Positions 43,317 to 44,020 of a DNA stretch of 64,000 nucleotides are shown here, piece after piece. The notes under the pieces are model-generated. The model ran no database searches. It saw only the letters and a list, made by a program, of their open reading frames with translations, and was not told the origin of the DNA. The translations under genes and the position numbers were made by a program. Positions within the stretch are counted from its first letter, which is position 1. Every line of letters starts with the position of its first letter. The DNA comes from an uncultured Eubacteriales bacterium (GTDB lineage: Bacteria; Bacillota; Clostridia; TANB77; CAG-508). The DNA lies in contig CATKWX010000003.1 of assembly GCA_949840345.1 (NCBI GenBank), positions 23,370 through 87,369 on the forward strand, written 5' to 3'.

Positions 43317-43522
43317 ATAATGATACTGATTTATTTGCAAATTCACCTATATTTTATAATGAAAATGCATAAATGTCAAATGAAATAAATGGTAGTAAGG
43401 ATTACGGAAACGCAAAATAATGTAATTTGATTTAGTTTAGACTAACAAAACCTACAAATATTCGACAAAGTTAGACAGTCAACAATACAATTGACAAAAA
43501 GAAAAGAATATTTAAAAAATAA

Positions 43523-43551
43523 TTGACATATGATAATAAATATAGTATACT
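43523..43551 (+). promoter_or_regulatory. Promoter PB1 (TTGACA-17-TATACT) driving small RNA B1
   Basis: Hexamers with 17-bp spacer. Extra TTGACA boxes upstream at 43490. Confidence 0.55.
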
Positions 43552-43557
43552 ATATTT

Positions 43558-43623
43558 ATCTTACAAGTTCGAAAGATGTCATAGAACTGTACCGAGATAT
43601 GTTCGCTGCATATCTCTTTTTTT
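43558..43623 (+). ncRNA. Small RNA B1 (~65 nt), candidate type I antitoxin RNA
   Basis: Terminator gagatatg-ttcgctg-catatctc + TTTTTTT (43594-43623). Segment 43566-43583 (agttcgaaagatgtcata) is identical to 43744-43761, so it is perfectly complementary over 18 nt to toxin-B mRNA from -1 to +17 around AUG. Confidence 0.6.
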
Positions 43624-43667
43624 AATATTATATTAAAAAACAGGCGGTCGCTGTCCGCCTGAAAGAT

Positions 43668-43760
43668 TTAATCTTTTTTAGTTTCATCTTGGTTTTTGTC
43701 ATTACTATTGTTTAATAATAATAAAATGATTAATCGCCAGATTAGTTCGAAAGATGTCAT
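43668..43760 (-). CDS. 30-aa peptide MTSFELIWRLIILLLLNNSNDKNQDETKKD: hydrophobic helix plus charged tail, Fst-like candidate type I toxin
   Basis: AGGAGG RBS and promoter TTGCAT-17-TATAAT (43808-43836, minus). The 5'UTR UCCUUUUCAUAGGAAAUCUAGGAAAGGAGG is homologous to toxin A's and includes the same anti-SD. Terminator caggcgg-tcgctgt-ccgcctg (43641-43661). Confidence 0.6.
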   Translation of the reverse strand: MTSFELIWRLIILLLLNNSNDKNQDETKKD

Positions 43761-43807
43761 AATTTATGTACCTCCTTTCCTAGATTTCCTATGAAAAGGA
43801 TTTATTA

Positions 43808-43836
43808 ATTATATACGAAGCAATCATATAATGCAA
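43808..43836 (-). promoter_or_regulatory. Promoter of toxin-B peptide mRNA
   Basis: Minus-strand TTGCATtatatgattgcttcgtaTATAAT. Confidence 0.5.
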
Positions 43837-43900
43837 TACTAAATTGTCAAATAATCAAAAAATAATTGACAAATAGTAACAAATATTGTATATTATATTT

Positions 43901-43970
43901 GTTAAATCGAATGAGGTCATGTTGAATTTACTTGAACTAAATGTGTGGTAGCATTTAGTTCTCTTTTTTT
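43901..43970 (+). ncRNA. Candidate small RNA B2 from promoter PB2 (TTGACA 43866 / TATATT 43889) to terminator gaactaaatg...catttagttc + TTTTTTT (43934-43970)
   Basis: Promoter-terminator unit with no ORF. Contains tcgaatgaggtcatg, a degenerate copy of the B1 pairing segment. Confidence 0.35.
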
Positions 43971-44020
43971 GCTCATATTTTACAAACAAGCTCATAGTAT
44001 TTAATTAAGGAGAAATTGAT

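Follow-up and report, generated by a model that had tools for sequence, protein, structure and literature searches.

All Gram-positive families of type I (RNA-controlled) toxin-antitoxin systems possess a 3'-located antisense RNA that partially overlaps the messenger RNA (mRNA) (T1TAdb, PMC8594479). The par/Fst family is recognized by its convergent promoters, a bidirectional terminator that serves both RNAs and provides complementary loops, direct repeats that cover the region of translation initiation, 5' structures that mask the ribosome-binding site (RBS), and an Fst peptide that contains a PxxxG motif (PMC7472228). Staphylococcus aureus has the modules SprA1/SprA1AS (PepA1) and SprA2/SprA2AS, with an antitoxin gene on the 3' side of the toxin gene; the antitoxin represses through pairing of its non-overlapping 5' domain with the RBS and the start codon and thus acts 'in trans' despite the adjacency of the two genes (T1TAdb, PMC8594479). 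Zor/Orz, TisB/IstR-1 and ShoB/OhsC consist of adjacent, non-overlapping genes with a short complementarity of ~18-20 nt (PMC8594479). In Clostridia, type I systems are known almost only from Clostridioides difficile, very few having been found elsewhere by homology searches; the C. difficile modules CD2517.1/RCd8, CD2907.1/RCd9 and CD0956.2/RCd10 are convergent and encode small peptides with a charged C-terminus (PMC6563280). Here we analyze a locus, denoted locus B, in a 64,000-nucleotide stretch of DNA (hereinafter the window) from an uncultured Eubacteriales bacterium (positions 23,370 to 87,369 of contig CATKWX010000003.1, assembly GCA_949840345.1), in which the gene for a 30-residue peptide faces a convergent gene for a predicted small RNA (sRNA).

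The reading that we favor, with a probability of about 0.72, takes locus B for a chromosomal module similar to type I toxin-antitoxin systems, with the regulatory logic of par (Fst/RNA II) but without RNA overlap. Because about a hundred uncultured gut Clostridia keep this design with matching changes on both partners, it very probably represents an undescribed branch of type I toxin-antitoxin systems, as judged from sequence comparison. We are more confident in the RNA circuit than in the toxicity of the peptide. The parts of locus B, in window coordinates, are the following.

43523-43551, plus strand: promoter PB1 of sRNA B1 (TTGACA-17-TATACT), matching 11 of the 12 consensus positions
43558-43623, plus strand: predicted sRNA B1, the antitoxin RNA, ~65 nt, with ends predicted from the -10 box (5') and the terminator (3')
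43566-43583, plus strand: anti-start-codon segment of sRNA B1 (direct repeat a), predicted to form an 18-bp duplex with mRNA positions -1 to +17
43588-43593, plus strand: short repeat TGTACC, identical to 43767-43772, read directly from the sequence
43594-43616, plus strand: terminator hairpin of sRNA B1 with the loop UUCGCUG (43602-43608), followed by a T run to 43623
43635-43661, minus strand: terminator of the peptide mRNA, with the stem 43641-43647/43655-43661, the loop 43648-43654 (ACAGCGA in RNA) and a U run at 43640-43635
43668-43760, minus strand: peptide open reading frame (ORF), 30 amino acids (aa) and stop codon, MTSFELIWRLIILLLLNNSNDKNQDETKKD
43744-43761, minus strand: target of sRNA B1 on the peptide mRNA, comprising the start codon (43760-43758) and the first 5 to 6 codons
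43771-43800, minus strand: predicted 5'-terminal hairpin of the peptide mRNA, with the apical stem-loop UAG-GAAAU-CUA
43808-43836, minus strand: promoter of the peptide mRNA (TTGCAT at 43836-43831, 17 nt, TATAAT at 43813-43808), with a predicted 5' end near 43801

The initial annotation of the window had listed the 18/18 repeat, the 30-aa minus-strand ORF, the terminators and the promoters, and we recovered each of them in the same place or within a few bases of it. Three terminator-like sites are present in the region compared to 0.2 expected from shuffled sequences, and the two predicted RNAs (the sRNA of ~65 nt and a peptide mRNA of ~170 nt) are not predicted to overlap. As is general for type I systems, the locus combines a small coding ORF (30 aa, below 60 aa) with an adjacent antisense RNA gene the product of which is predicted to pair with the mRNA.

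The closest counterpart of this arrangement is par of Enterococcus faecalis plasmid pAD1 (RNA I/RNA II), together with its chromosomal relatives in the Fst/Ldr family, with which locus B shares convergent promoters and an sRNA gene located on the 3' side of the toxin gene, direct repeats that are transcribed in opposite directions and yield an sRNA complementary to the initiation region, a 5' stem-loop over the RBS (predicted, with partial pairing, in locus B), a terminator stem-loop contact (in locus B, complementarity read from the sequence and involving two hairpins instead of one) and a peptide of ~30 aa with a charged tail. In par, however, the single shared bidirectional terminator provides loop complementarity for free, whereas locus B has separate terminators with unrelated stems, of which only the loops match. 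The Fst peptide has a hydrophobic transmembrane domain and a PxxxG(C) motif, whereas the locus B peptide lacks PxxxG and matches no Fst model; and, unlike those of par, the hosts of locus B are uncultured gut Clostridia. Thus, locus B appears to work like par but is not demonstrably a member of the Fst family.

The other described systems are more distant. The antitoxins SprA1AS and SprA2AS resemble sRNA B1 in being encoded 3' of the toxin and in pairing, as is predicted for sRNA B1, at the start codon through a non-overlapping 5' domain, but the SprA1 and SprA2 RNAs overlap at their 3' ends, in place of which locus B has the loop-loop complementarity of two hairpins. The C. difficile modules share with locus B the clostridial class, the convergent orientation and a small peptide with a charged tail; however, their toxins are 50-53 aa long and their antitoxins overlap the toxin transcripts over a long complementary stretch, suggestive of a decay mechanism, and the RCd8-10 modules show no sequence or architecture similarity to locus B. 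Zor/Orz, TisB/IstR-1 and ShoB/OhsC likewise consist of adjacent non-overlapping genes with short complementarity but, in contrast to locus B, the sRNA gene is located 5' of the toxin gene and divergent from it, no terminator-loop contact has been described, and the hosts are Gram-negative.

The 18-mer AGTTCGAAAGATGTCATA occurs at both 43566-43583 and 43744-43761, with identity at all 18 positions; the two copies are transcribed in opposite directions, so that the plus-strand RNA is complementary to the peptide mRNA from position -1 to position +17. By our own rough estimate, ~1e-5 to 1e-6 exact 18-mer repeats would be expected by chance within 486 nt, and a chance origin is untenable because of the comparative data across 102 related loci given below. 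In the predicted fold of sRNA B1, most of the recognition segment is located in a 13-nt loop (z = -3.2). The sRNA can also pair through UGUACC with GGUACA at the 3' edge of the RBS, a lone 6-mer match that could be due to chance. Within the window, which contains a paralogous module on the other side of a 1439-aa gene (locus A, see below), the cognate pairs are clearly the best, with predicted duplex energies of -39.0 kcal/mol for sRNA B1 with mRNA B and -34.1 kcal/mol for sRNA A1 with mRNA A, compared to -23.4 kcal/mol for B1 with mRNA A and -24.5 kcal/mol for A1 with mRNA B.

The initial annotation had proposed a phylogenetic scan of Clostridia for the conserved 5' untranslated region (UTR) together with the peptide. 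We scanned one genome per species with the 5' UTR pattern CCTCCTTT-N(1-10)-GATTTCC-N(1-10)-RAAAGGA and identified at least 118 stretches, nearly all in metagenome-assembled genomes (MAGs) of uncultured Clostridia from the human, mouse, rabbit, ruminant and chicken gut. Among the matches listed, nearly every clostridial one contains an ORF of 21-46 codons 3' of a GGAGG, and about a dozen matches in other phyla, which is the number expected by chance, lack a small ORF. The related loci share a peptide ORF under selection, a convergent sRNA gene with a near-consensus promoter, and a start-region match that is specific to each locus. On the strand opposite to the peptide gene, a strikingly conserved promoter and leader, TTGACATATAATAAAAAATATAGTATACTATATTTAACTTAAG, precedes the repeat, with a terminator downstream; the PB1 sequence itself, TTGACATATAATAAAAAATATAGTATACT, is nearly unchanged in the related loci. 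The combination of a strong sRNA promoter with a peptide promoter that has a weak -35 box is found throughout the family. The peptides were sorted into seven classes.

Class 1 (locus B): M[TS]S[FY][DE]LIWRLI[VI]LLLL and a polar/acidic tail, 27-30 aa
Class 2 (locus A): MTAFDLIFFLIVLLLGKNWGK..., 26 aa
Class 3: MNNAELVWRLVELLLQKEKDLNQ..., 42-46 aa, amphipathic
Class 4: MSGYMLIWILLQKIEKLEEELNTYKN..., 31 aa, amphipathic
Classes 5-7: three very hydrophobic classes, 21-30 aa, with a single bidirectional terminator

In classes 5-7, the terminator is a single bidirectional one with an A run and a T run at its flanks, which is exactly the arrangement of par. Siblings with the same 5' UTR hairpin, very hydrophobic peptides of 21-30 aa (for example, MRKLFKILIWALIILFVFENVVY and MLLAKILLKVLTIIVDIILLIIDIIEKLHK) and one bidirectional terminator include the related loci L014, L031, L051, L074, L078, L102, L110 and L127, as well as L042, L047, L067, L073 and L075. 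These single-terminator modules are the most par-like ones of the family and likely represent its ancestral state. Genomes contain several modules, at variable positions, and the modules can be close neighbors, as in L063 and in L126 (two within 8 kb); one of the L126 modules contains a ~125-nt GC-rich self-complementary insert between the sRNA terminator and the mRNA terminator. Two of the three matches in viral contigs are real modules, and the family is mainly chromosomal and at times located on phage-like DNA.

For the 102 related loci with enough flanking sequence, we compared the start-codon region with the DNA 75-110 nt past the stop codon and found exact repeats with a median length of 11 nt, compared to 7 nt in both inverted-orientation and shuffled controls; in the short hydrophobic classes, the repeat is located 35-60 nt past the stop codon. 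The repeated sequence varies from locus to locus, and the start codon is nearly always within it or abuts it. With G-U pairs and one mismatch allowed, the median number of paired positions is 15 for cognate sRNA-mRNA pairs, in a set preselected for repeats of 9 nt or more, compared to 10 for non-cognate pairs. The evidence from more than 100 related loci thus supports the proposal of the initial annotation that the small peptide gene would be repressed by a convergent antisense sRNA acting over its start codon.

The comparison of the related loci also points to a feature that is absent from the earlier reading of the locus, namely co-varying, complementary terminator loops. Individual terminator hairpins for the sRNA and for the mRNA are present in 59 loci, where the two loops share 4-8 nt on the same DNA strand and are therefore complementary as RNAs. 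In locus B, the loops are TTCGCTG (43602-43608) and TCGCTGT (43648-43654), with the common core TCGCTG (43603-43608 in the sRNA loop), so that UCGCUG of the sRNA and CAGCGA of the mRNA are predicted to form 6 bp; in locus A, the core common to both terminators is TGACC (38542-38546 and 38585-38589). After removal of duplicates, 37 distinct loop pairs with 33 different cores were retained. The matched loops share, on average, 5.9 nt (87% of the shorter loop), compared to 2.6 nt for mismatched loops and 1.9 nt in the reverse-complement control, and none of the 5000 permutations reached the observed match. The five stem bases beside the loop are never identical between the two hairpins of a locus. 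A match of the loops combined with unrelated stems does not result from simple duplication and requires selection for loop-loop pairing.

An independent set of loci was obtained by searching a metagenome collection for the coding sequence of MTS[FY][DE]LIWRLI. The 29 loci found in this way through the peptide-coding sequence have the same sRNA promoter, start-region repeats of 9-17 nt and matching terminator loops (shared cores CGTCCA, GGGTA, CGACGA, TGCTAC and CGGACA), whereas the 5' UTRs are mostly different. In several of the metagenome loci (L137, L139, L146, L160 and similar ones), a class 1 peptide is encoded behind another 5' UTR, with the hairpin GUCCUUACAUAAGGAU followed by UUCCCUGAAGAAGGGAGG. 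Thus, the UTR has been exchanged or remodeled without loss of the peptide, of the sRNA promoter or of the match between the loops.

The 5' end of the peptide mRNA seems to provide an additional level of control. In the predicted fold of mRNA B, the tract UCCUUUUC (43800-43793) pairs with GGAAAGGA of the RBS GGAAAGGAGG (43780-43771), and in both peptide mRNAs of the window, the 5'-terminal UCCUUUUC is predicted to pair with GAAAGGA of the RBS, with a small stem-loop as a cap (z = -3.5 and -6.0). The apical stem of this hairpin is paired at 96.7% across the family, with 16 double-sided changes, a result equaled by none of the 500 shuffles. In other UTR types, a pyrimidine tract is likewise predicted to pair with the particular RBS variant of that type (UUCCCU with AGGGAG, CUCCUU with AAGGAG). 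We also considered the apparently invariant apical loop GGAAAUC as a possible factor-binding site and rejected this possibility as an ascertainment artifact of the first search pattern, the loop being present in only 7 of the 28 loci that were found through the coding sequence.

With respect to the promoters, the assignment of TTGCAT-17-TATAAT to the toxin gene in the initial annotation fared unequally by two measures: a promoter scan ranks TTGACA-16-TATGAT (43850-43823) higher, whereas conservation in the family favors the original choice. In most of the 67 related loci compared, a constant 7 nt separates the TATAAT box from the UCCUUU tract that follows it, and the -35 box is weak and of the TTGT type; this constant distance places the transcript start at the anti-RBS tract and supports the promoter proposed originally. 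On the sRNA side, the first 10-12 nt of most sRNAs of the related loci (for example, L019, L028 and L063) and of the window sequence at 38503-38512 are a conserved palindrome, AACUUAAGUU or AGCUUAAGC, immediately after the -10 box; sRNA B1 of the window has lost this leader palindrome (AUCUUACA). The palindrome (CUUAAG) was rejected as a third contact site, the motif being found in 1 of the 37 mRNAs; it could be an operator, a 5' stabilizer or a dimerization site.

The 30-aa ORF is annotated as a gene, always without a name, in 58 blocks of public assemblies (for instance, in the MAGs GCA_948901475.1 and GCA_948724515.1). Pairwise comparison of the 35 distinct class 1 sequences yields 2579, 1853 and 4614 differences in codon positions 1, 2 and 3, respectively. 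Residues L6, I7 and L10 are invariant in the class 1 peptides although each is encoded by 3-4 synonymous codons, W8 is invariant as well, and serines 2 and 3 alternate between TCN and AGY codons. This pattern indicates that the peptide ORF is under purifying selection at the protein level. An exhaustive phmmer search with the peptide returned 13 cluster representatives, every one a short ORF, and no larger protein family. A full-text literature search for the peptide motifs gave a sole match, to an unrelated lactoferrin peptide. No match was found when the locus was compared with plasmids using blastn or the peptide with plasmids and phages using tblastn, although some of the peptide may have been hidden from these searches by the low-complexity filter.

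Taken together with the known systems, these features suggest the following mode of action. A promoter with a weak -35 box would produce the ~170-nt mRNA, the 5' end of which, UCCUUUUC, would fold onto the RBS, so that the primary transcript would be poorly translated. From the opposite strand, 3' of the peptide gene, the near-consensus promoter would yield an abundant sRNA of ~65 nt with two places of contact on the mRNA. Contact would probably begin with the kissing of the sRNA terminator loop UUCGCUG and the loop ACAGCGA of the separate mRNA terminator, after which the 5' part of the sRNA would zip up over the start codon (18 bp, -1 to +17), with another 6 bp at the edge of the RBS. The resulting duplex would block initiation and possibly create a substrate for RNase III. 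Once the sRNA has decayed and is not replaced, the peptide would be made and would presumably harm the cell. Peptide B is predicted to consist of a short hydrophobic helix, the L-I-W-x-L core of which is invariant, and a tail that is polar and acidic.

Several observations weigh against this interpretation. The predicted pairing of the RBS is partial, involving 3-4 of the GGAGG bases, and by the pairing metric, real UTRs were not distinguishable from shuffled ones; the preselection of the cognate set in the test of paired positions has been mentioned above. The hydrophobic stretch of peptide B, F4-L16, consists of 13 residues, including E5 and R9, and is short for a membrane-spanning helix. 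The related classes MNNAELVWRLVELLLQKEKDL... and MSGYMLIWILLQKIEKLEEEL... are amphipathic rather than hydrophobic, which is atypical of type I toxins. Searches of Pfam, NCBIfam, PHROG and PADLOC with nine peptide variants gave no credible match, and no known toxin model matches the peptides. Finally, the hosts are known only as MAGs.

Some of these points bear on an alternative that we regard as unlikely but that survives best, namely, that the RNA circuit is real whereas the peptide is not a toxin but a small regulatory or membrane-associated protein that is kept off by the sRNA and recognizes a specific partner through its L-I-W-x-L face. The N-terminal motif is conserved far more precisely than general hydrophobicity would need, classes 3 and 4 are amphipathic and highly charged, and the short hydrophobic stretch and the lack of a match to known toxin families fit this view as well. 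On the other hand, a double lock consisting of a 5' hairpin and a dedicated antisense RNA transcribed from a stronger promoter is typical of type I loci, as are multiple copies per genome, variable position and occasional presence in viral contigs, and the siblings that share the 5' UTR encode classic, very hydrophobic peptides of 21-30 aa.

True membership of locus B in the Fst/par family, by common descent, appears less probable still. The gene order, the direct repeats in the start region, the 5' stem-loop over the RBS and the terminator-loop contact are the same as in par (PMC7472228), and the sibling classes have kept a single bidirectional terminator. However, MTSFELIWRLIILLLLNNSNDKNQDETKKD contains neither a proline nor a PxxxG motif, and a comparison of peptide B with Pfam and NCBIfam, Fst models included, gave no match at E values up to 10. 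A search of Rfam over the region returned nothing at the gathering score and no relevant match at E values up to 10, and RatA, the sole antitoxin RNA family among the sub-threshold matches, scored 23.1 bits (E = 1.5), far below the cut-off of 49. Furthermore, the terminators of locus B are separate, and the peptides are so short that homology can be neither demonstrated nor excluded. Accordingly, the description of the locus as Fst-like in the initial annotation holds for the RNA architecture and does not extend to the peptide, with its 13-residue hydrophobic stretch and without PxxxG or a match to an Fst or other toxin model. The notion that local duplication or a mobile repeat element gave rise to the repeats and hairpins, which would then have no regulatory role, has next to nothing to recommend it: promoter segments are indeed duplicated inside each locus and modules are found in different genomic places in different species, but the 33 loop cores match only within a locus while the stems differ, the start-region repeats change along with the coding sequence, the codon-level purifying selection would be left unexplained, and the GC-rich palindrome near locus B is single-copy in the window.

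The window contains three further units of this kind: the paralogous locus A, which has the same layout as locus B, and two additional sRNA genes.

38467-38741: locus A, paralogous module, consisting of the sRNA A1 promoter and RNA (38467-38562, plus strand) and the peptide ORF (38607-38687, minus strand)
38607-38687, minus strand: locus A peptide, MTKYDIIFLVIVLLLGKQWGKGKGRR
38783-38947, plus strand: sRNA A2, in which a promoter and leader 93% identical to those of A1 are joined to unrelated sequence
43866-43970, plus strand: sRNA B2, orphan antitoxin-like gene, with the promoter TTGACA-17-TATATT (43866-43894) and a terminator (43934-43961)

The proposal that loci A and B are paralogous is borne out by the N-terminal core common to the two peptides (MTSFELIWRLIILLL and MTKYDIIFLVIVLLL), the tails of which differ, and by the shared 5' UTR motif, which occurs exactly twice in the window (38714-38735 and 43782-43801) compared to 0.00 occurrences expected. 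The repeat of locus A (38516-38530/38686-38700) is identical in 14 of 15 positions, and the lone mismatch corresponds to a G-U pair.

The promoter of sRNA B2 is 84% identical to PB1. The recognition segment of B2 (43907-43921) is the antisense of ATGACCTCATTCGA, the coding sequence of M-T-S-F-D, and the terminator loop contains GUGGUAG, a motif also seen in sRNAs of other family members; no partner toxin for B2 is present in the window. B2 matches the start region of toxin B at 12 of 15 positions, but a role as a second antitoxin for toxin B was rejected given that the predicted duplex with mRNA B (-22.9 kcal/mol) is no better than those of non-cognate pairs. The most plausible reading of B2 is an orphan antitoxin gene or the antitoxin of a different class 1 toxin that would be encoded elsewhere in the genome. 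sRNA A2 has a small hairpin of its own (CTTCGTA...TACGAGG) and ends in the terminator of the 1439-aa gene; among the 56 leader-type sRNA promoters in the DNA that we retrieved, 55 face a toxin 5' UTR, the sole exception being that of A2. An sRNA-type promoter upstream of the toxin promoter was found in only 7 of the 67 related loci, with some of these promoters belonging to neighboring modules, so that the second sRNA unit, which the initial annotation had included in the design, is not part of it.

The genomic surroundings of locus B are similarly not conserved. None of the loci listed (at least 118) adjoins a homolog of the 1439-aa BcrAD/DUF2229 gene or shows synteny with SpmA, so that the position beside the 1439-aa gene, which the initial annotation had pointed out, finds no support in the comparison of loci. 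Nor did the description of nearby sequences as REP-like elements find support: the isolated GC-rich palindrome GGGGTCGGCGCCTCGACGACCC (43293-43314), located in a region of 30% GC that separates locus B from the start of the 1439-aa gene, is present in a single copy in the window. Beyond locus B, the gene that follows spmA (44704-45232, plus strand; Gate-domain, SpmB-like) is split into overlapping ORFs of 116 and 73 codons; the same gene is split in other assemblies of the species, and the split may be a frameshift or a programmed feature. At the other end of the window (91-21174, plus strand), a single ORF of 7027 codons encodes a giant protein.

The family delineated here is large and unannotated, and its carriers are about a hundred uncultured species from the gut of humans and animals. 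The comparative signal is unusually clean: the two predicted intermolecular contacts, which co-vary across dozens of loci, amount to a natural compensatory-mutation experiment, and the split-terminator layout indicates that the terminator-loop 'kiss' of par is selected in its own right and is not a mere by-product of a shared terminator. These modules are also a source of natural, mutually orthogonal sRNA-mRNA pairs that are possible design parts, and their peptides make up a new conserved family. We tentatively suggest, as a possibility that falls short of even odds, that these modules carry a two-part, rewritable address, composed of a variable anti-start-codon segment and a variable kissing loop on a dedicated terminator hairpin, which evolved by the splitting of par's terminator into two co-evolving hairpins, and that the peptides are a new family that acts through the invariant L-I-W-x-L face on a specific conserved target in uncultured gut Clostridia rather than as generic membrane poisons. 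If this is the case, the two-part address would allow many paralogous modules to coexist in one small genome without cross-talk.

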